64,000 nucleotides of DNA. Origin: Ignavibacteriota bacterium. Its GTDB lineage: Bacteria; Bacteroidota; Ignavibacteria; UBA10030. The notes beneath the pieces are model-generated. The model had not been told where the DNA came from. It searched no databases and saw only the letters and a program-made list of their open reading frames with translations. The position numbers and the translations under genes were made by a program. The DNA lies in the NCBI GenBank assembly GCA_963727825.1, contig CAVSHO010000001.1:160001-224000 (forward strand). Reading direction: 5' to 3'. Below, piece by piece: positions 15,326-51,904 of this stretch (within the stretch, counting starts at the first letter, position 1; each line of letters opens with the position of its first letter).

Positions 15326-18300
15326 GTGCCTTCTATTCTTTTAAACGATACCGAACTTCATTTCCCTAATTTTACTATCGTTTCTGCATCTGCAGGATCG
15401 GGTAAGACGCACACGCTCACGTTAAAAATTTTACAGCTCTTATTGTCTCCGAATGCGCCAAACAATCGGTTGAACAATGTACTTGCGATGACGTTCACTA
15501 AGAATGCCGCCGCTGAAATGCGCCAACGTGTTCTGGAGTATTTGAAGAAAGCATACCACGGTGATAAAAACATTCTTGATCAATTATGCCCTCTCGTTTC
15601 AATGGATGAAGCGGAACTCCGCACTCGAAGTGGTGAATTGATTGAAACAATATTACAGGATTACTCCGCGTTTCAGGTGCAAACGATAGACAGCTTTATG
15701 GCACGAGTGTTTCGCGCTTCTGCGTTGGAGTTTGGTTTTTCACCGACGCTTGAAATTGTTTTGAATAACCGCACAATACTTGATGCGGCTTTTGAACAAT
15801 TCGCCCGCGAACTTGCAACCGACCCGACAAAACGACATCTGCTTGAAGAGCTGACAGATATTCTTGTTGAAAGCCAGTCCCGACAAATCGGAACTTCACG
15901 GTATATTTGGAATCCATTTCAAAAACTCTCAGATGAAGTTCGCAATCTGTATAACATCTTGAGCGCACAATCAAAAGAAGTTCTGTCATTAACGGAAAAC
16001 AGTGGACAGGTGAACACACTGCGCACGGAAATTCTTGATACGTTTCGTCAGCTTCAAGCACTTGTAAGAGATTCAGGATTGGAAATAACTAAGAATTTTG
16101 AAAATGTCACTGATATCGCTAATACCGGAGATGTAGATAAGCTGATAGAATTGAAGAGTGTCAATAAACCGGTAAAAGCAGGTAAATCGAAAGCCGAAAA
16201 AGAAGAAACGGAAAAATGGAACGCACGTTTTTCACAACTGCAGGAAAAGTTCAACTCGCTTGCTGCAGAATATGTTGTGCAGCAGGCATATCAATATTAT
16301 CATCCGTATGTCGAAGCGCATAAATTGTTTCGGGGTACTATCGAACAGATTATGCGGCGCAACAATCAAATTAATCTTTCTGATGTCAACCATACGCTTC
16401 TGCATTACATTTCGGAAGAAATTGTGCCGCAAGTATATTTCTATTTGGGCGATACCGTCTACCATTATCTCATTGACGAGTTTCAGGATACTGCACCAGT
16501 GCAGTGGGAAGCAATAAAGCCGCTGTTCGCCGAGGCACTCTCAAAGCAGGGAAGTCTGTTTGTTGTCGGAGATACCAAACAATCCATTTACGCTTTCCGT
16601 CATGCCGATTGGCGCATTATGAAAAACGTAATGATGAGCAACGTCTTTCCATCGGCGCCGCCTGAAGTGCGAGAACTGGAAATAAATTACCGGAGCTTCG
16701 AACGAATACTTGATTTCAACAAAACGGTCTTTCATTCCATAGTGCCATCTGCAATAGATGGTGACGCACCGCGTGCTAGCGGGTTATCAACTTTCAAACA
16801 AGAGGTAGAAGAAAAGAATAAGAAGAAAGGATACGTTGAGATTGTCTCGTTTGAAAAAGGTGAAGGCCAAGAACAGGAACGTGCGAAGATATTGGAAATT
16901 GTAAATGGTTGTCACACGCGTGGTTATCGATATGGCGATATTACAATCCTGACACCGAAGAATGAACAGGTCGTTACTATCAGCGGATGGCTTAATAAAG
17001 AGCATATTAAGTTTATTTCGCACAGCAGTCTAGATATTCGCGGTCGTGCAATCACCGGTGATGTCATAGCACTTCTTCGCTTTCTTGATTCACCAATTGA
17101 CGACCTTGCATTCGCAACTATTTTACTGAGCGGCACATTTCATCGCGCACTTACCGCTGACAACTTGAAGTTGACGCAAGAGGAACTTCATTCGTTCATT
17201 CTTCAGGCGCGAAGAGCGGAACATCCGGTGTCGCTGTATGCATCTTTCCGCCTGCGTTATGCCGATATTTGGCAGAAATACTTTAATGAACTTTTCACAG
17301 TCGTCGGTTACTTGCCGATGTATGATCTTCTATCAGAAATTTATAAGCAATTTCGATTGTTCGAGATTGCACCCGAGGAAGAAGGCGCACTTGCAAAGCT
17401 GTTGGATGTGATGAAAAATTTTGAAGAGACCGGACAGAATAATCTAAAAGATTTTCTTGCCTTTGCCGATGATGAAGAAGATGATACAGATTGGAATATT
17501 GCTGTACCCCACGGCGAAGATGCAGTTTCTGTAATGACAATCCACAAAGCTAAAGGATTGGACAATCGTGTAGTCATTGTTTTGTTGATAGATTCTAAAT
17601 TACGATCAGATAATTTGTTTGTTGAAGAAAATAGCGACGGTGTCCGGTTAGTGCATATAACACAAAAAAATGCGGCGTTTGATAAGACGCTTATGGAACT
17701 GTACAATCAACACCGTTTTGAACGAGCAGTAGATGATCTCAATAAATTATACGTTGCTTTTACAAGAGCAAAAGAAGAGATGTACGTAATCAGCGTTAAG
17801 ACCAAATACGCCGATGAACCGTCAAAATTTCTGCCATCTTCCGGCTATGAACCGTCGATAAAGCCGGAAGTCGAAAAACAGAAACAAACACAAGAACTAG
17901 TCATGCCCCTGTATCATTCGTCAAGGCGAACACCCGTTAGCAATGCTACATCGGAGAAGTTGGCGTTGTATGAACGCCGCCGCGGCGAGGCTATTCACGA
18001 TGTATTGTCGCAAGTAAAGTTCGCAGGTGCTGATATTGAAATGCTCATATCATCCTCTATAAGGAAAACCGCGGGAAGCTGGATGCAACCAAATGATGAA
18101 GAGCGTATCAAATCGTTGACTTTGGAATTTCTGCGTTTGCCGGAAATAGCGCCATTCTTTACGTGCGTTGAAAACAGAAAAATATTGAATGAGCAAGAGT
18201 TTGTTAATCCAGATGGACGGCTGTTCCGAATGGATCGGATTGTTGTTGATGCAGACGTAGTGACGGTGCTCGATTTCAAAACGGGAGATGATAAAGATGC

Positions 18301-18415: not shown

Positions 18416-21198
18416 GCGAACGCATCGTCCTCAGTTCAACAGATCATCTTATTGAAACTGTTGCTTCTCATCTGGAAGCGCAAGGAAGAGATTTCTCAAC
18501 TACCGCAATTGTTTTCCCAGGAAAACGCCCTGCGCATTTCTTGCGTAAAGAGCTTGCTCATCGTGCTGGCGGCAGTATTATTCCCCCAAAATTATTTTCT
18601 GTGGATGAATTTATTATTTCGCTTTATGAGCAACTTCATCCGGAGCCCGTACACGATCTGGAATCGATTGATGCTGTCGCATTGCTTTACCTCGTACATA
18701 ACGAATTAAAAGAACGGTTAGGCGGCAACTACTTTGCATCACTTGATGCATTCATTCCAATTGGATTGAAGTTGTTTGGTGAACTGGAAGAACTCAAGCT
18801 GGCTCATCTTCCCGAAAGAAAAATAAAAGAAGTAATATCAGCACTTACATACAACCGGCTATTCTCGCTTGTTGATTATTATACAAAGTTCTACATGCTT
18901 GTTGCAGAAAAAGGTTTTACGACGCGTGCTGTCCGTTACGCAGAAGTTGCCGAAAATATCGATGAATTGGATCTCAGTGGCTTCACCCAGATTATTGTGG
19001 CAGGATTATTCAAGCTGACTCACGCCGAACAAATCATTTTTAATGATTTAGAAAAACGTTCAAACACGCTGTTTGTGTTTCAAGCGGATAAAATTGAAGA
19101 AGGAACGCCAGAACCAGAAATTCACTTCTATAAAGCATCCGATACGCACGGACAGGTCTTTGCACTTTCGGCTCTTATCAAGAAACAATTAGATAATGGC
19201 TCACAACTCGATGAACGCTCGGTGATTGTTCTGCCGACTGCCGATGCGCTCTTTCCTGTGGTACACCAAACACTTTCGCTTATGCCGCAGGAACAATATA
19301 ATATTGCGCTTGAATATCCGATGGCGCGCACACCGATTTACGGTTTTCTTAATAACCTAATGAAATTGTTATGCACGAAGCAAGGAGAACGGTACTCAGC
19401 AGCACACTATATAAAATTTATTTTGCATCCATACACTAAAAACATTCGCTTTGGAAATCGAACTGATATCACACGCATACTTTTTCATGCTATAGAATCG
19501 GAGCTGACGAAAGATAAATCTAAAATTCTGTTGACGTTAGAAGAGATAGAGCAGTCGGATGAAATCTTTACGAATATCTCATTAGCAATTTCAGATTCTG
19601 ACATTAAAGTTACATCGGAGCAAATGAGAGAACATCTTCTTGTTATACATTCAAGCACTATCCATATTCTTGAAAATATTGTCTCAGTTAAAGAATTCGC
19701 ACACAATATCATAAAAGTTCTTACTTACATTTACGATCAAAGCACCGCTTGTCTACACCCGCTGTTTCGTCCTTATGCAGAAGCATTGTTAAAAGTGTTT
19801 CTGCACTTAGAAGAGTCGTTTGTTGGAAGTGCATCGTTTCGCGATACCTCTGGGTACTTCAATTTCCTTCAGCAGTATGTAGCCCTTCAAGATGTTCCGT
19901 TCCCCGGCACACCGCTTCGTGGTTTGCAAGTGCTCGGTTTATTAGAAACGCGTAGTCTGCACTTCGATGATGTATATTTTTTAAATGTGAATGACAACGT
20001 AGTACCCGGCGGCATCGGCGGCGACATGCTTTTGCCGCAGCAACTGCGTGAAAAATTAGGATTGGAGACTAGGCGCGATCGGGATAAATTAAGCGAGTAT
20101 TATTTTTATCTGCTTGTGCGCGGAGCAAAACGGGTACATCTATTTTATTCGGAATCAGGGGAGAGTGATAAGAGCCGATTCGTTGAGCAATTGCTGTGGG
20201 AACGCCAGAAACGGGATGGTTCGAACTCATCCGACAATTACATTCAGACAGTGCGTTATCAAGTGAAACTTGCCAATGAAGCAGTTCGGCCAATTCCAAA
20301 ATCGACTGATGTGCTCGCAATGATGCATGGATTTACGTACAGCTCAAGCTCGTTAGATACGTATCTGCAATGTCCGATTAAATTCTATTACAGACACATT
20401 TTGCACATACAAGAAAAAGAAGAAGCATCGACCGACCTCGATAATCAGGATATCGGTATCTTTGTCCACGAGGTTCTAAAAAAATTCTTTGAACCATGTA
20501 TAGGAAGGAGATTAGAAACACACGATCTATTGCCTGAGCGCATGAGACAAATAGTAGATGACTTGTTCACATTGAAATTCGGAACGGATCCGGCAGGAGC
20601 GGCATATTTGCTGAAACGTCAAATTCAACGGCAATTAGAATCACTTCTCAAAGATTACCAACAGCCGGTGTCAGAGGAAAATGAAATTATTCTTAAGGGA
20701 CTTGAAGAAAAGATTTCCGTCCATACATTAGGAGCAAAGTTTGAAGGGCGCCTTGACCGTATTGAACAACGCGGCAATAAGATTTTCATTCTCGATTATA
20801 AAACTGGACCAAAACCAAGTAAGCCGCCGATTAATTTCGGCAAACTCAATCTTAATGAACGGGAAAGCTGGAGTGAAGCAGTTATGTCTTTGCAGCTGCC
20901 GATGTATCTATTGTTGTTTAGTATTTATACAAAAACTGCGATAGAAGAAATCGTTCCTGCGTACCTCTATCTTGGTAAGAACCGGCTCAGCAAGGAATGT
21001 GAAGAGGCTTTTATGGAGGGCACAGAAGAACGGGCGGCTGGTTTTGAGCAAATCAAACAGTTCATCGAGCTTTTACTGAAAGAGATAAACGACAGTGATA
21101 TTCCTTTCTTGCCGCCTGTCGATCTCAGCAAGACTTGTCCGCGTTGCCCTTATACCGGATTTTGCGGCACAGCATGGGTGCAGGGTTGGAAGGTATAA
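18412..21198 (+). CDS. AddB-like inactive-helicase/PD-(D/E)XK nuclease with Fe-S cysteines
   Basis: ATGA overlap with the helicase gene; GLQVLGLLETR, YLQCP, GRLDRI..ILDYKTG, QLPMY, CPRCPYTGFC. Confidence 0.88.
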   Translation: MSERIVLSSTDHLIETVASHLEAQGRDFSTTAIVFPGKRPAHFLRKELAHRAGGSIIPPKLFSVDEFIISLYEQLHPEPVHDLESIDAVALLYLVHNELKERLGGNYFASLDAFIPIGLKLFGELEELKLAHLPERKIKEVISALTYNRLFSLVDYYTKFYMLVAEKGFTTRAVRYAEVAENIDELDLSGFTQIIVAGLFKLTHAEQIIFNDLEKRSNTLFVFQADKIEEGTPEPEIHFYKASDTHGQVFALSALIKKQLDNGSQLDERSVIVLPTADALFPVVHQTLSLMPQEQYNIALEYPMARTPIYGFLNNLMKLLCTKQGERYSAAHYIKFILHPYTKNIRFGNRTDITRILFHAIESELTKDKSKILLTLEEIEQSDEIFTNISLAISDSDIKVTSEQMREHLLVIHSSTIHILENIVSVKEFAHNIIKVLTYIYDQSTACLHPLFRPYAEALLKVFLHLEESFVGSASFRDTSGYFNFLQQYVALQDVPFPGTPLRGLQVLGLLETRSLHFDDVYFLNVNDNVVPGGIGGDMLLPQQLREKLGLETRRDRDKLSEYYFYLLVRGAKRVHLFYSESGESDKSRFVEQLLWERQKRDGSNSSDNYIQTVRYQVKLANEAVRPIPKSTDVLAMMHGFTYSSSSLDTYLQCPIKFYYRHILHIQEKEEASTDLDNQDIGIFVHEVLKKFFEPCIGRRLETHDLLPERMRQIVDDLFTLKFGTDPAGAAYLLKRQIQRQLESLLKDYQQPVSEENEIILKGLEEKISVHTLGAKFEGRLDRIEQRGNKIFILDYKTGPKPSKPPINFGKLNLNERESWSEAVMSLQLPMYLLLFSIYTKTAIEEIVPAYLYLGKNRLSKECEEAFMEGTEERAAGFEQIKQFIELLLKEINDSDIPFLPPVDLSKTCPRCPYTGFCGTAWVQGWKV

Positions 21199-22691: not shown

Positions 22692-22822
22692 TTTTTCAGT
22701 CCTTCTTGTTAGGATTCATGTCGAGCGGAAAAATCGGGCGAAGAGCAACGAATTAGCTAACGTAATTTTTTTTTAATCATAAAAAAAATATCATACAACG
22801 ATTGATCTTACTATATGGGCCT

Positions 22823-23296: not shown

Positions 23297-23785
23297 TTAA
23301 TCGAACTCCTTACGAGGCTTGGATTGCTCCAACCCAACTTTGCCGATAATGATATCAGCTTTGAAATAATTTTCACCTCTTATAGGCGCGCCTGATAAAC
23401 GTCTCAGCATAGCAAGTTGGCCAACATGCGTGAAAGCATCCGCAATCGGCCCCTGGAACAACTTATCTAATGGGCATGCGATTGGGGAATTGCTTGCCAA
23501 GTATGTATCGAACTTCTGCAAAGAATCGCAGAAACGGGCAACCTCACGATTCCAATCCTGAGGGTGGGAGTCAAGCCAAATCTCCTCTCCTTTTAACATT
23601 GAAAGCGCCCAATCAAAAAGATCGCCCATATGGGCAAGGATTTCAACTGGTGCCCGGGATTTTGTATCCACACGAAAAGTTGCGAAGGTATCGGGAACGT
23701 CACGAATCGTTTTCGTTGCTCGATAAGCCAAGCTGGCAGCAATATGCCGAAACATTTCGCGATTGTGTTCAGATTTCATTGTCAA
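23297..23785 (-). CDS. DinB/YfiT-like four-helix protein
   Basis: P.EILAHM, DAFTHVGQLAMLRR..G.P motifs. Confidence 0.7.
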   Translation of the reverse strand: MTMKSEHNREMFRHIAASLAYRATKTIRDVPDTFATFRVDTKSRAPVEILAHMGDLFDWALSMLKGEEIWLDSHPQDWNREVARFCDSLQKFDTYLASNSPIACPLDKLFQGPIADAFTHVGQLAMLRRLSGAPIRGENYFKADIIIGKVGLEQSKPRKEFD

Positions 23786-23817
23786 ACTATCCTCATGAGT
23801 CTATATAATGCAATCGC

Positions 23818-48375: not shown

Positions 48376-49641
48376 TTATACTTTTTCTGGAACTTCCTTG
48401 ATCTTCGAGGAGTTCACAAGAATCTTTAATAATTTATCACCGATTAACTTGTCCTTGATTTGGTCGGAGGATTTGTAGTAATTGATAAGGCGGTCTTTTG
48501 GAATTTTAATTTTAACGGATTCTTCTTCCGCCAACTTTTCGAGATCTTCGTCGGAAACGGTAACATTTTCTGCTTTGATTAATTCTTCACGTAGCAGCGC
48601 CCACTTTGCCTGATAGATTGCATAGGTGCGGTTCTCTTCTTTGAACTTTTCTTCGTTAAATTCGGATGGCAGTCGCTTATCAGGATATTCATTTTTAATT
48701 TCTTCCAACAATCCGTCGAGCACACTGCGAATAAGCGATTCCGGCACTTGAAATTCATGACGCCGGATAATTTCCGCAGTTAATGAATTGATTGCCTGCC
48801 GTTCACTTTTTTCTTTCCAGTAAGCAACAATCTCTTCTTTGATATTCGTGCGCAACGTCTCTACCGTATCGAATTTGTTTTTCGTGACTTTAGCAACAAA
48901 AGCTTTGTCTAATGTTGGTAATGTTACCTTCTCTATTTTTTTAACGATAATTTGTGTCTTAACGGTGTGCGTCTGTTCAGCATGTTTGTGATCAAACTGC
49001 ACAGAATATTCACCATTTTTCTTAGCTTCTTTCAATGCATTTTTAAACGGTTGTTCAAGTTGTTCATCGGCAAGATAAAAACGAACATTCTCGCTCTTCT
49101 TATCAATCAACGGTGCTCCGGTTTCATCTAAGTCCTGTAAAGTTACTGTGACGATGTGCTCTTGGGAAGTAACGACTTCGACCTCCTCCATCGCTGCGTT
49201 AGCTCGCTGTAAACGGATTAGTTCTTTTTCCACTTCGTCATCAGTGATCGTGTGAACGATTTTTTCTACTTCGATGCCCTTGTATTCTTTTACTATAATC
49301 TGCGGCCGGACATCAAATTGGATTTTACATCGAAAACTTTCACCATGTTTGTAATCCATATCAACAAGGGTAGGTTCGCCGATCGGTTTTAATTCTTTTT
49401 CCTTTACCGCCTGCCGATAAAATTCTGCGGCAATTTCATTAAGAGATTCATTCTCAATTAAATCACCATACAACTTTTTAATTATGTCAATCGGCACTTT
49501 ACCTTTTCGGAATCCGCGAATCTCAATCTTCTTCCGATATTCCAAATATGCTTTGTTGAAATGAGGTGATAGATCTTCCGGTGTAGCTATAATTTCTGCC
49601 GAACGCAGGACATCCGATAATGATTGAATAGTAACTTCCAC
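48376..49641 (-). CDS. tig: Trigger factor
   Basis: IRGFRKGKVP signature; GTG start at 49641 with AAGGA RBS; tig-clpP-clpX synteny. Confidence 0.92.
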   Translation of the reverse strand: MEVTIQSLSDVLRSAEIIATPEDLSPHFNKAYLEYRKKIEIRGFRKGKVPIDIIKKLYGDLIENESLNEIAAEFYRQAVKEKELKPIGEPTLVDMDYKHGESFRCKIQFDVRPQIIVKEYKGIEVEKIVHTITDDEVEKELIRLQRANAAMEEVEVVTSQEHIVTVTLQDLDETGAPLIDKKSENVRFYLADEQLEQPFKNALKEAKKNGEYSVQFDHKHAEQTHTVKTQIIVKKIEKVTLPTLDKAFVAKVTKNKFDTVETLRTNIKEEIVAYWKEKSERQAINSLTAEIIRRHEFQVPESLIRSVLDGLLEEIKNEYPDKRLPSEFNEEKFKEENRTYAIYQAKWALLREELIKAENVTVSDEDLEKLAEEESVKIKIPKDRLINYYKSSDQIKDKLIGDKLLKILVNSSKIKEVPEKV

Positions 49642-49671
49642 GTAACTTCCTTTACATAATGATATGACCTG

Positions 49672-49850
49672 TAGGCACGAAGGAACTTGAACCCGCACGG
49701 ATTATCCATCCCGCAAAACTGCTGTGGGTAGAGGGGGAGTTGAACCCCCATGGATTACTCCACTAGCTCCTAAGGCTAGCGCGTCTGCCAGTTTCGCCAT
49801 CTACCCGAAATAGTTTTGCGGGACGCGTCTGCCAGTTTCGCCACGTGCCC
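49672..49850 (-). ncRNA. Outer tRNA-Leu-like scaffold split into a 5' half (49824-49850) and a 3' half (49672-49708); anticodon arm replaced by a 12-bp stem enclosing a complete tRNA
   Basis: GGGCACG/CGTGCCT-A acceptor stem; D-arm identical to the inner tRNA; variable arm TGGATAATCCGT; GGTTCAAGT T-loop; clamp TCCCGCAAAACT/AGTTTTGCGGGA. Confidence 0.7.
49725..49806 (-). tRNA. tRNA-Leu(TAG), CCA not encoded
   Basis: GGGTAGA/TCTACCC-A acceptor; CTAGC-CT-TAG-GA-GCTAG anticodon arm; long variable arm; GGGGG-TTCAACT-CCCCC T arm. Confidence 0.95.
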
Positions 49851-49910
49851 GTTGCGAAAAATGCCCAATAAGCTGGGCATTTTTCAAAATGCTTACAATT
49901 AGGCGTTTTT

Positions 49911-49939
49911 AATATAAGAACCGATTGAATGAAAAGCAA
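49911..49939 (-). promoter_or_regulatory. Sigma70-like promoter for the tRNA/tig region
   Basis: TTGCTT-17 bp-TATATT on the minus strand. Confidence 0.6.
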
Positions 49940-49964
49940 AAAGGGATTCATAATGAATCCCTTT
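49938..49964 (-). terminator. Intrinsic terminator after the TPR gene
   Basis: AAAGGGATTCAT/ATGAATCCCTTT hairpin plus T run. Confidence 0.65.
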
Positions 49965-49990
49965 CCGTATCGCACTTTGAGAATTGAAAA

Positions 49991-51904
49991 CTACTTACCA
50001 GTTCGTTGAAGTTCATTTAGTTTCGTGAGGAAATCGACCGCCTCTTGTTTTGTCGGATCGAGACCAATAGCATTGTTAAAATACTCTCGCGCCTTCTGAT
50101 AATTCTTTACATTTTGATGCTCTCGGCCAAGTTGAATATTGGTTTTATAACTTTTAGGATTAAGTAAAAGAGCATGCTCGTAACACTGTATCGCACGCGC
50201 AGGATCAGCATCGCCGCCATATGCCACGCCAAGATCAAAATTGACTTTCCAGTAATCATTTCCTTTGGCAAGGGCAGTGGTCAGCACATTGATGATTTCT
50301 TTAAAATTACTCTGTTTGAGATAAAGATTACAACTTTCGCTATAGGCACTCAAGTACATAGTGTCTATTTGATAGGCGCGTTGAAATGAATAGTTAGCAC
50401 GTATCGGATCACCAGTGCGATTGTAAAACTTCCCCTGAGCAAAAAAGCCGTAAGCAAAATTCGGTGCAATAAGTGTGATTTGTTGATACTTATCCTTCGC
50501 ATTCTGAATGTCTTTTGCCTGCTCAAATTGCTCCGCTTCGTCGAACATCTTCATCACTTCCGATGAGATATGCTGTTCGTGGTTTGTTATGATTACACGG
50601 AGCATATCAAATCGGGCGATAATCTCTGGATCATAACACTTGCGAAATATTTCGACAATCTCTTGTTTTGCGCTGGTGAAATTGCCATAATAATAATCGT
50701 TCACTGCCTTAAGCATGGAATAGTAGGGCTGTGAAAACGAAATTGTATCTTTCTTCAGATTCGGCAAGAAATCAATTGGAAAAATTGGAATATGCGTCTG
50801 CCAACGTTCATTGCAAATCCGGATGAATGTCTCGTATGATCCGGTATCGTTGTATTTCGCTAATCGCGCTTGATAGTCTTCCGGAATCGCCATCTTTAAC
50901 TCTGTAGCAGTAGTATCGGCAAAATTGAGCGATGAAAATGCCGATGCCAATGTTTCAATCATGTTGATATACCGGTAGCCAATTTTACTTGTTGCAGATC
51001 CTTCGATAATCCATCGTATATTTTGGTCGTCCAGAGTGTGCTGAAGTGAATCCCGAAAGCTTGCGGCTTGAGCAAGAGAGATGCGGCATCTATCTAAAAT
51101 AGGTGCGACTGCTGTATCAAGCGAACCGACATTCCATTCGATACGTGGCAATGAATCAAGGATGTACTTGAACGTCGGCTTGAGACCGTCTACCAGTGCG
51201 ATTCGTGATTTTAAATCCGTTTGAACATTTGCAGCAGCTGATTGAAACGAGGCTGAGGTTTCGTTATATAAGTCTTCGAAGCATTGAGTGCGTTTAGATT
51301 TATATTCATCATACAGAGTAAAAATTTTGTAATTAGCATCACTTAAAATTTGTTCATATGAACCTATTGCTGATTTGAAGCGTTTTGCGACTACCGCGGT
51401 TTCTGCTTGCTTTGCAAGGTCGCTCACAATTGTGAAGCCAGGCCAAAATTCCTGAGGTACTTTAAACTCCACTTGATTCGTTGCTTCGTCAATCGGACAC
51501 TGAAATAAGAAAAGAAGATTGAGTTTGAAGGTTTTAGGAAATCCAAGCAAAATAGAGTTGTTCCCTCCAGCAATCAGTTCTCCTTTCCAAGCGATGGGAA
51601 TTTTCTTTTCGTCTTGATAGATGTTCACTCTGGAAAGTTGATCTTTTATAAAATCCTGATCAAGTTGCCAATCTTCCACAGATGTGACAAGAAAGTAAAA
51701 ATACTGTCCACTGTTAACATTGTCGCTGGTTAAAGGCAGTTGTCGATTCTCATTTGATAATTCGATCTTAACGGTGCGCGGTCCGCCAAGCCCAAATAAG
51801 CCGGACTTCGCTTTTATTTTCAATTGAACAGATGGAGCTTGCGCATTTAAAAGCGATGTAATGCAAAGGAGACCAGAGAGCAACGATAAAAATCTGGTAT
51901 TCAT
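49991..51904 (-). CDS. Secreted tetratricopeptide-repeat protein
   Basis: Signal peptide; C-terminal TPRs (A..YE.AL.LNP, AREYFNNAIGLDP). Confidence 0.8.
   Translation of the reverse strand: MNTRFLSLLSGLLCITSLLNAQAPSVQLKIKAKSGLFGLGGPRTVKIELSNENRQLPLTSDNVNSGQYFYFLVTSVEDWQLDQDFIKDQLSRVNIYQDEKKIPIAWKGELIAGGNNSILLGFPKTFKLNLLFLFQCPIDEATNQVEFKVPQEFWPGFTIVSDLAKQAETAVVAKRFKSAIGSYEQILSDANYKIFTLYDEYKSKRTQCFEDLYNETSASFQSAAANVQTDLKSRIALVDGLKPTFKYILDSLPRIEWNVGSLDTAVAPILDRCRISLAQAASFRDSLQHTLDDQNIRWIIEGSATSKIGYRYINMIETLASAFSSLNFADTTATELKMAIPEDYQARLAKYNDTGSYETFIRICNERWQTHIPIFPIDFLPNLKKDTISFSQPYYSMLKAVNDYYYGNFTSAKQEIVEIFRKCYDPEIIARFDMLRVIITNHEQHISSEVMKMFDEAEQFEQAKDIQNAKDKYQQITLIAPNFAYGFFAQGKFYNRTGDPIRANYSFQRAYQIDTMYLSAYSESCNLYLKQSNFKEIINVLTTALAKGNDYWKVNFDLGVAYGGDADPARAIQCYEHALLLNPKSYKTNIQLGREHQNVKNYQKAREYFNNAIGLDPTKQEAVDFLTKLNELQRTGK

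Follow-up and report, generated by a model that had tools for sequence, protein, structure and literature searches.

A 64,000-nt stretch of the genome of an Ignavibacteriota bacterium (assembly GCA_963727825.1, contig CAVSHO010000001.1, positions 160,001 to 224,000; the window) contains, directly upstream of the trigger factor gene tig, a complete tRNA-Leu(TAG) gene that lies between the two halves of a second tRNA-Leu gene. Comparison with related genomes showed that the 17-nt anticodon arm of the resident gene was replaced by a 116-nt cassette carrying a complete tRNA-Leu(UAG) of another allele (acceptor GGGTAGA/TCTACCC), and that the inner tRNA now does the decoding while the outer halves and the clamp formed by the cassette arms, released from selection, are decaying. 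We hold it to be highly probable that the locus consists of the relic of a resident tRNA-Leu(UAG) and a replacement cassette; the fuller statement, which adds that the cassette is mobile in a site-specific manner, stands at about even chances. The window appears to show the innermost and youngest layer of a serial replacement of tRNA genes that has so far not been described, and in the literature searched (main texts) no paper on nested bacterial tRNA genes or on the tRNA-Leu loci of Ignavibacteria was found.

A tRNA-Leu gene between the halves of another

The nest spans 179 nt of the minus strand (49850-49672) and has the order that an initial annotation, made from the letters of the window, had described, i.e., a 5′ half, an arm, a whole tRNA-Leu(TAG), a second arm and a 3′ half (Table 1). 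ARAGORN calls a single tRNA-Leu(tag) in the region, the inner one, and Rfam RF00005 matches it with 56.5 bits against a gathering score of 29 over model positions 1-71. Using nhmmer, the outer 5′ half was aligned to positions 2-28 of the tRNA-Leu model (E 2e-4) and the outer 3′ half to positions 47-83 (E 3e-4). The perfect 12-bp stem in place of the anticodon stem was confirmed both by the sequence and by folding, in which the 179-nt RNA forms the clamp and the outer acceptor helix with a minimum free energy of -77.6 kcal/mol (z -4.02, 0/200 shuffles equal). The outer acceptor is unlike the inner one (GGGCACG/CGTGCCT versus GGGTAGA/TCTACCC) and yet pairs, through six Watson-Crick pairs and G1-U72, and the outer T stem is as weak as had been stated, with one C-U mismatch and two G-U pairs. 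The D arms of the inner and outer genes are identical across 19 nt.

Table 1. Features of the nested tRNA-Leu locus and its flanks (window coordinates)
Feature	Coordinates	Strand	Remarks
Outer 5′ half, GGGCACG..GACGCG, 27 nt	49824-49850	-	acceptor 5′ strand GGGCACG, D arm, base preceding the anticodon stem
5′ clamp arm TCCCGCAAAACT, 12 nt, left terminal inverted repeat of the cassette	49812-49823	-	perfect 12-bp complement of 49709-49720
5′ spacer ATTTC, clamp arm to inner tRNA	49807-49811	-	
Inner tRNA-Leu(TAG), 83 nt, complete	49724-49806	-	acceptor GGGTAGA/TCTACCC; ARAGORN, Rfam RF00005
3′ spacer AGC	49721-49723	-	
3′ clamp arm AGTTTTGCGGGA, 12 nt, right terminal inverted repeat of the cassette	49709-49720	-	
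Outer 3′ half, ..CGTGCCTA, 37 nt	49672-49708	-	variable arm, weakened T arm, acceptor 3′ strand CGTGCCT, discriminator A
Conserved hairpin ATGCCCAGCTTATTGGGCAT followed by a T run	49857-49880	-	directly upstream of the outer 5′ half
tig (trigger factor)	48376-49641	-	GTG start 30 nt 3′ of the outer 3′ half; Pfam Trigger_N 5e-37, Trigger_C 1.3e-18

The two junctions, ..GACGCG^TCCCGC.. and ..GCGGGA^TGGA.. (the junction being marked ^), have no segment in common, and 17 nt of the target are missing between them. Only 116 nt separate the outer halves, a space that holds no integrase and no cargo, and an 11-mer of the clamp has three exact copies in the 3.1-Mb genome, two of which are the two arms. 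We agree with the initial annotation that this is neither a tandem duplication nor the ordinary attL/attR scar of a half tRNA: the repeats are inverted and not direct, and the direct repeat and the integrase with cargo between the fragments that a tyrosine integrase would leave are both missing here.

Nested and plain relatives

The nature of the outer halves became clear from the genomes of the same genus, of which 9/16, with the window's own (G000, 96.8%-complete; other G and L labels stand for comparison genomes and loci) included, are nested and 7/16 are plain. The seven plain genomes have a single ordinary tRNA-Leu(TAG) with the acceptor, D, variable and T arms of the window's outer halves, and a normal 17-nt anticodon arm at the place of the window's insert. 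Positions 1-27 of the intact tRNA in the plain sister species G011 and G013 match the outer 5′ half without a difference, and the outer 3′ half differs from the 3′ part of that tRNA by about five substitutions and one deletion. Between plain G001 and nested G009 and G010 there are 0 and 1 differences, respectively, in 260 nt upstream, the downstream sequence is nearly identical, and the nest is the sole structural difference; G000 likewise differs from plain G011 and G013 by the nest. An intact, un-nested tRNA of the outer type thus occupies the same spot in sister species, and therefore the outer halves represent the former resident gene and the inner gene a newcomer allele. This supports a possibility offered in the initial annotation, namely that a palindrome-bounded mini-element had replaced the resident tRNA with a new allele. 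The inner gene must be the working copy because the genome, with 45 tRNAs, has no other tRNA-Leu(tag); between nested members of the genus, 81-83 of its 83 positions agree. The outer 3′ halves, on the other side of the junction, show the variable arm typical of their own clade, beginning with the bases next to the junction (GGA/TCC in clade A, GGG/CCC in clade B).

An artefact of assembly, or a tandem duplication followed by decay, can for practical purposes be discounted. The 19-nt identity of the two D arms is of a kind that can confuse assemblers, but the same architecture is found in independently assembled genomes of the genus (eight besides the window's own), in other genera and in 13 metagenome contigs, and Logan contigs bridge the junctions (X1, records 1 and 6; X3, record 23; RNA-library X12, records 9 and 11). 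These contigs show no starts, ends, strand or level, parts left uncovered by them have no meaning, and those from the RNA library are no proof of transcription; for the question of misassembly, which had been raised at the outset, the nest in the other genomes and metagenomes and the bridging contigs settle it in favor of a real structure. A tandem duplication, moreover, would give the order 5′-3′-5′-3′, whereas here a whole gene, bounded by inverted repeats, stands between the 5′ and 3′ halves of another.

The more elaborate idea of the initial annotation was that the clamped outer halves, once the inner tRNA is excised, would form an anticodon-less mimic charged by leucyl-tRNA synthetase and serving as a non-ribosomal donor, a decoy or a processing scaffold. 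In its favor, the outer acceptor of the window's own nest is still able to pair and all 12 bp of its clamp are matched, and contigs of the RNA-library run X12 span the inner tRNA, the clamp and the outer halves (a contig is no evidence of a transcript, and the library may contain DNA). The relatives, however, make it very improbable. In an alignment of 7 nested relatives, the outer scaffold (acceptor, D stem, clamp and T stem; 27 pairs) was scored for compensatory change on both sides of a pair, and none of the pairs (0/27) showed it; the proportion of paired cells was 84.9%, compared with a mean of 85.1% in shuffled alignments, and 500/500 shuffles reached the observed value. Five of the 12 clamp pairs depart only through unpaired cells, and the outer T stem is 65.6% paired among nested relatives, so that the view of the weak T stem as a sign of decay, also put forward initially, was borne out. 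In G015, G008, G012 and G004 (L005-L008), a hairpin-forming insertion of about 30 nt (..CAGCCGGAGGCTGATGCGC..) interrupts the outer T loop, and other relatives show broken clamps or a lost clamp register, or mutation or loss of the D arm; one is nearly without its 5′ half. The nested architecture expected upstream of tig in related genomes was thus present (9/16), the covariation expected in the clamp and acceptor was not, and the nest is absent from the seven plain genomes altogether. The T-loop insertion was also seen at L046; it is common to several species of one clade and absent from G009 and G010.

Searches for a functional outer RNA pointed the same way, and the chargeable two-piece mimic found no support in them. 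No second tRNA-like match and no intron family was found by Rfam at E up to 10 in 49640-49880, and ARAGORN made no call on the outer halves, either with introns of up to 200 nt allowed or with the halves joined; a "tRNA-Lys with intron" that it reported on an artificial, capped version of the joined halves was spurious and was disregarded. A splicing endonuclease of the EndA type (PF01974) had no match in G000, while control archaea gave matches. An intron-containing tRNA, whether of the bulge-helix-bulge or the group I kind, does not fit, as the joined halves are without an anticodon arm. Group I introns do occur in the anticodon loops of bacterial tRNA-Leu(UAA), and the window resembles them in that a bacterial tRNA-Leu gene has received an insertion in its anticodon region, but here no intron family is recognized, the whole anticodon arm is gone and the outer gene decays. 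The disrupted tRNAs of Archaea and some algae (with non-canonical introns, split or permuted), for which a mobile-element model has been proposed (Sugahara et al. 2012, PMC3293823), are likewise interrupted by foreign sequence at a helix junction. They differ in remaining functional through EndA bulge-helix-bulge splicing, whereas the window's outer gene has no anticodon arm, its genome no EndA, and the insert is itself a working tRNA.

Arms, layers and spread of the cassette

The cassette arms were compared in 23 distinct cassettes with both arms, found with a search criterion of at most one mismatch in the proximal 8 nt TCCCGCAA. Although their inner tRNAs have at least seven types of acceptor, 20/23 show complete pairing of these 8 bp, TCCCGCAA/TTGCGGGA; 19/23 are flanked on the left by GGCAGACGCG, and the beginning of the variable arm forms the right flank. 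The 3′ spacer ranges from 0 to 8 nt and the 5′ spacer from 4 to 56 nt. Complementarity extends through all of the distal 4 nt in 8/17 distinct cassettes versus 9/254 mismatched combinations, and they come in five different fully paired sequences. The arms keep their sequence and complementarity from one independent cassette to the next but decay after settling in a genome, which suggests that the constraint on them acts at transfer. Miniature inverted-repeat transposable elements (MITEs), repetitive extragenic palindromic (REP)-like mini-elements and the attC sites of integrons are tiny non-coding units with inverted repeats, in which a conserved stem base is combined with a variable but complementary upper stem. 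The cassette resembles them in being small and bounded by inverted repeats (12 bp, perfect), with an enzyme presumably acting in trans; it differs in that it occurs as one copy per genome apart from stacked layers, makes a 17-bp deletion in place of a target-site duplication, is strictly targeted to tRNA-Leu and has an essential gene as its sole content.

The distribution of the nest was followed at tig, where tRNA-Leu(TAG) precedes the gene in 20/20 related loci and in 73/81 of a larger set (80 other loci and the window's own; the 8 without it include 3 at contig ends). Partial tRNA-Leu copies flank the working tRNA gene in 23 of these 73 loci, as detected with a hidden Markov model of the 73 tRNAs (E at most 0.01), a count that leaves out more degraded fragments visible by eye. 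Within the order, at least 16 of 277 genomes have a verified exact left junction, in each case a single one located at tig. An order-wide pattern search with one mismatch gave 31 places in 29/277 genomes; among 20 places fetched, 9 were true nests and 11 were chance matches in unrelated sequence, and the places in G147, G152 and G154 were left uninspected. With exact arms, a phylum-wide search of 401 sampled genomes matched only G000 and G005. A scan of metagenome contigs returned 27 stretches, of which 14 were chance matches in other sequence and 13 were further nests, one of them around a tRNA-Leu(CAA) (L275); for two others (L265, L284) no tig was found downstream, and tRNA-Gly follows in L265. 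An apparent junction with cargo at L269 was set aside because it has no tRNA features. The tRNA-Leu(CAA) nest (L275, at about 3464, minus strand) has a 14-bp clamp, then a 3′ half that does not match and then a second copy of the inner 3′ part.

The replacement has also taken place more than once at a single locus. Genome G155 has two complete outer layers, each with its own complementary pair of arms, and a third 3′ remnant, the acceptors being GGGCACG inside GGGTAGA inside GGGCACG. As the complementary arms are specific to their layer, both arms of each layer must have arrived together.

Movement between lineages is indicated by a phylogeny of one gene, tig, in which nested and plain genomes interleave. 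Plain G013 branches as the sister of G000 (support 98/97), and in a clade that is otherwise nested (seven members), G001 is plain. G000 and G010 have a third-codon identity in tig of 0.45, i.e., near saturation, and nevertheless agree at 29/32 linker positions, 26/27 positions of the outer 5′ half and 83/83 of the inner gene, whereas the closer pair G010 and G008 (third-codon identity 0.64) agree at only 24/32 linker positions. The similarity of the cassettes therefore does not track the divergence of the genomes, so that cassettes move between lineages, and on this gene tree the same cassette has entered the resident genes of different lineages at the same two positions.

How such a transfer might work can be sketched as follows. 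The mobile unit would be the cassette itself, whose ends form a hairpin with the conserved 8-bp base. A site-specific process, with its enzyme supplied in trans, would swap the cassette hairpin for the anticodon hairpin of a tRNA-Leu gene, with junctions at the two bases of the anticodon stem, after ..GACGCG and before the variable arm. The arriving tRNA would bring a fresh anticodon arm and hence the next target, and repetition would for that reason build onion-like nests. In its most pointed form, which we put forward as a tentative proposal, this would be a minimal selfish tRNA gene: a cassette of 115-150 nt, made of a tRNA-Leu and a hairpin whose base is the recombination site, moves into the anticodon arm of the resident by exchange of hairpin for hairpin, the DNA being folded as a single strand or in cruciform shape, kills the resident, takes over its job and becomes the next target.

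Several observations weigh against site-specific mobility of this kind. None of the copies seen has a recombinase, a transposase or cargo, whether enclosed by the arms or next to them, and in 13/13 metagenome nests a full tRNA-Leu begins 8-59 nt past the clamp. An excised or circular form was not found, the arm forms no repeat family in G000, and the element is single-copy per genome. We know of no class of recombinase or transposase that would leave a 17-bp target deletion with neither a duplication nor a common core. The tree behind the interleaving is that of tig alone, and the nest was not found in IMG/VR, where the left junction and a second arm type gave 0 matches each. Two loci, L054 and L275, are composites of a foreign 3′ half and the displaced 3′ part of the host tRNA, which look like recombinational shuffling or a different integration. 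Finally, the outer halves of a nested donor are homology arms in themselves, with which ordinary homologous recombination could move the cassette between relatives. Two other IMG/VR searches gave matches that were rejected: the arm followed by a tRNA-Leu D arm had 3 matches, all of them phage tRNA-Leu(CAA) behind a chance octamer, and head-to-head arms, as a possible excised junction, had more than 113 among the matches listed, which were generic hairpins met by a pattern too unspecific for the purpose.

Homologous recombination might in fact be the whole explanation, a reading that we consider somewhat unlikely. According to it, the nest arose once or a few times by accident, and its outer halves then recombine with an intact tRNA-Leu by double crossover, the DNA coming in via transformation or conjugation, with no dedicated enzyme; two reciprocal nests could likewise build onions. 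The nest does offer arms of 27 nt and about 39 nt within a conserved tig synteny, the composites L054 and L275 look recombinational, the alternation GGGCACG > GGGTAGA > GGGCACG in G155 fits reciprocal exchange, neither an enzyme nor an excised form was found, and a D-loop variant (TGACAG) common to the outer 5′ halves of G009, G010 and G012 hints that outer sequence travels with the cassette. On the other hand, the variable-arm state of the recipient is kept at the junction, so crossovers within about 3 nt of the heterology would be needed. The proximal 8 bp do not vary among three families of the order, nor at the loci for which a downstream tig was not found or in the nest around a tRNA-Leu(CAA), and yet these same arms decay once resident; the distal arms differ and still stay complementary, which is not what neutral hitch-hiking predicts. 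The origin of the first nests is also left unexplained by recombination.

A different source of nests would be integrase-borne islands or prophages, either bringing a replacement tRNA or succeeding one another as 5′-type and 3′-type islands, with the cargo deleted later. That the locus is a live target for such elements is evident from G004, in which a 48-kb island (contig C55, 67500-118800, L021-L023; junctions at about 69044 and 117148) lies in the inner tRNA of a nested locus, with tRNA positions 1-39 duplicated at the left junction as a 39-nt direct repeat, a tyrosine integrase (Phage_integrase, Arm-DNA-bind_2) adjoining and a PrimPol/VapE gene at the far end. In addition, the flank directly upstream of the tRNA in G013 and L048 resembles the end of this island, and the insert of L054 is flanked by a short CGCG repeat with the 3′ part of the host tRNA displaced. 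Yet the G004 island brings the 5′ 39 nt of the tRNA with it and so restores the gene, and the island ends bear no relation to the arms. The window junctions have no common core, 17 bp of the target are missing rather than duplicated, the arms are inverted and not direct repeats, and all copies examined are free of cargo with short spacers, so that the same near-exact deletion would be needed many times. We therefore regard scars of islands as an improbable origin. The same tRNA gene is an integration hot spot for classical islands, which also place partial tRNA-Leu copies beside the working gene, but their fragments are direct repeats around an integrase cargo, whereas those of the window are the two complementary halves of an older gene, each separated from the new one by an inverted-repeat arm. 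Islands usually carry the 3′ part of the tRNA, whereas the one in G004 carries the 5′ part; a similar upstream flank was seen in G013 (L011/L032) and L048.

Disruption and replacement of a tRNA by an integrase is documented for actinobacteriophages, where, in tRNA-dependent lysogeny, a tyrosine integrase disrupts a single-copy tRNA through an 8-10-bp core that is kept at both junctions, and the replacement tRNA is located elsewhere in a prophage of about 50 kb (Guerrero-Bustamante and Hatfull 2024, PMC10865867). As in that system, an essential single-copy tRNA is disrupted in the window and not rebuilt, and an incoming tRNA of the same isotype takes over decoding: the outer gene has no anticodon arm and the inner one is the sole tRNA-Leu(tag). 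The window is unlike it in its 116-nt insert with no other gene, the missing core, the 17-bp deletion, the inverted-repeat ends and the serial nests; there is no phage genome with an integrase and a common core.

A second class of junction, ..GGCAGAC^CTGCCCGCC.. with ..GGCGGGC^GCG and the anticodon arm, was found upstream of tig at L045, L047, L069, L074, L076, L085, L086, L091 and L092. It is a clean insertion in which the outer anticodon arm is kept. A single recombination model with attP/attB cores was sought for both junction classes, and none fitted all loci. In this second class the outer 3′ part resumes after ..GGCGG(TCA)GGCGGGC, and the 3′ arm resembles a mutated D arm.

Surroundings of the locus and its meaning

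Downstream of tig lie clpP and clpX (Pfam CLP_protease; ClpX zinc finger, AAA), a gene for a tetratricopeptide repeat (TPR) protein lies upstream of the tRNA, and the flanks (TPR gene, tig) are the same in plain relatives. The hairpin ATGCCCAGCTTATTGGGCAT is present upstream of nested and plain tRNAs of the genus alike; further upstream there are a terminator-like hairpin (49967-49937) and a conserved TATATT motif. The sigma70-like promoter that had been placed just upstream of the nest was not recovered, as a promoter scan of 49300-50300 lists no sigma-70-like site on the minus strand. A motif ..TTCTTATATT(G/A)AAA.. at 49905-49925 (minus strand), about 55-75 nt upstream of the tRNA, is shared by nested and plain loci of several genera; it may be the -7 element of a promoter of the Bacteroidota type.

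Other palindromes were seen in these genomes. "Empty" GC-rich hairpins of 25-28 nt (GCCCGCC..GGCGGTC.GGCGGGC) stand between the variable arm and the T stem of relic 3′ halves at L060/L130 (G155), L069 and L070. Hairpins of the type GCCCGCC..GGCGGGC form a small family in G155 (8 places) that is absent as a family from G000. Hairpins similar to the "empty" ones lie on contigs C91, C190, C391, C479 and C670 of G155 (L245-L249), one apparently within an open reading frame; they may be a small family of palindromic elements, with no secure connection to the window's cassette. Outside the window, contig C10 of G000 has a 28-nt GC-rich hairpin with CAGG-type flanks (194060-194087, L253) in an AT-rich, seemingly coding region, which resembles the hairpins of G155, and contig C11 of G000 has three near-identical 37-nt palindromes GCCCGCCGACAAT..GCCGGCGGGC within less than 6 kb (18238-18274, 19741-19777 and 23772-23808), with a related fourth at 22816.

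Transfer RNA genes are usually seen as passive landing pads that mobile elements rebuild after integration. Here, an essential tRNA is overwritten repeatedly by a cassette that is scarcely more than a further copy of it, which leaves a readable stack of its predecessors. In annotation, the half-tRNAs on either side are to be treated as fragments of pseudogenes and not as genes. The layered relics provide a relative clock for the turnover of tRNA alleles and a marker for horizontal exchange among uncultured lineages. If spread were due to homologous recombination alone, the nest would be a natural gene drive-like allele equipped with its own homology arms. If, instead, the cassette is autonomous, it would be among the smallest gene-carrying mobile units known and would point to a hairpin-specific recombination activity in Ignavibacteriales. 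A selfish tRNA gene, if true, would represent a mobile element of a new class and a new way in which tRNA alleles turn over, and it may interact with the islands whose integration site is the same anticodon loop.

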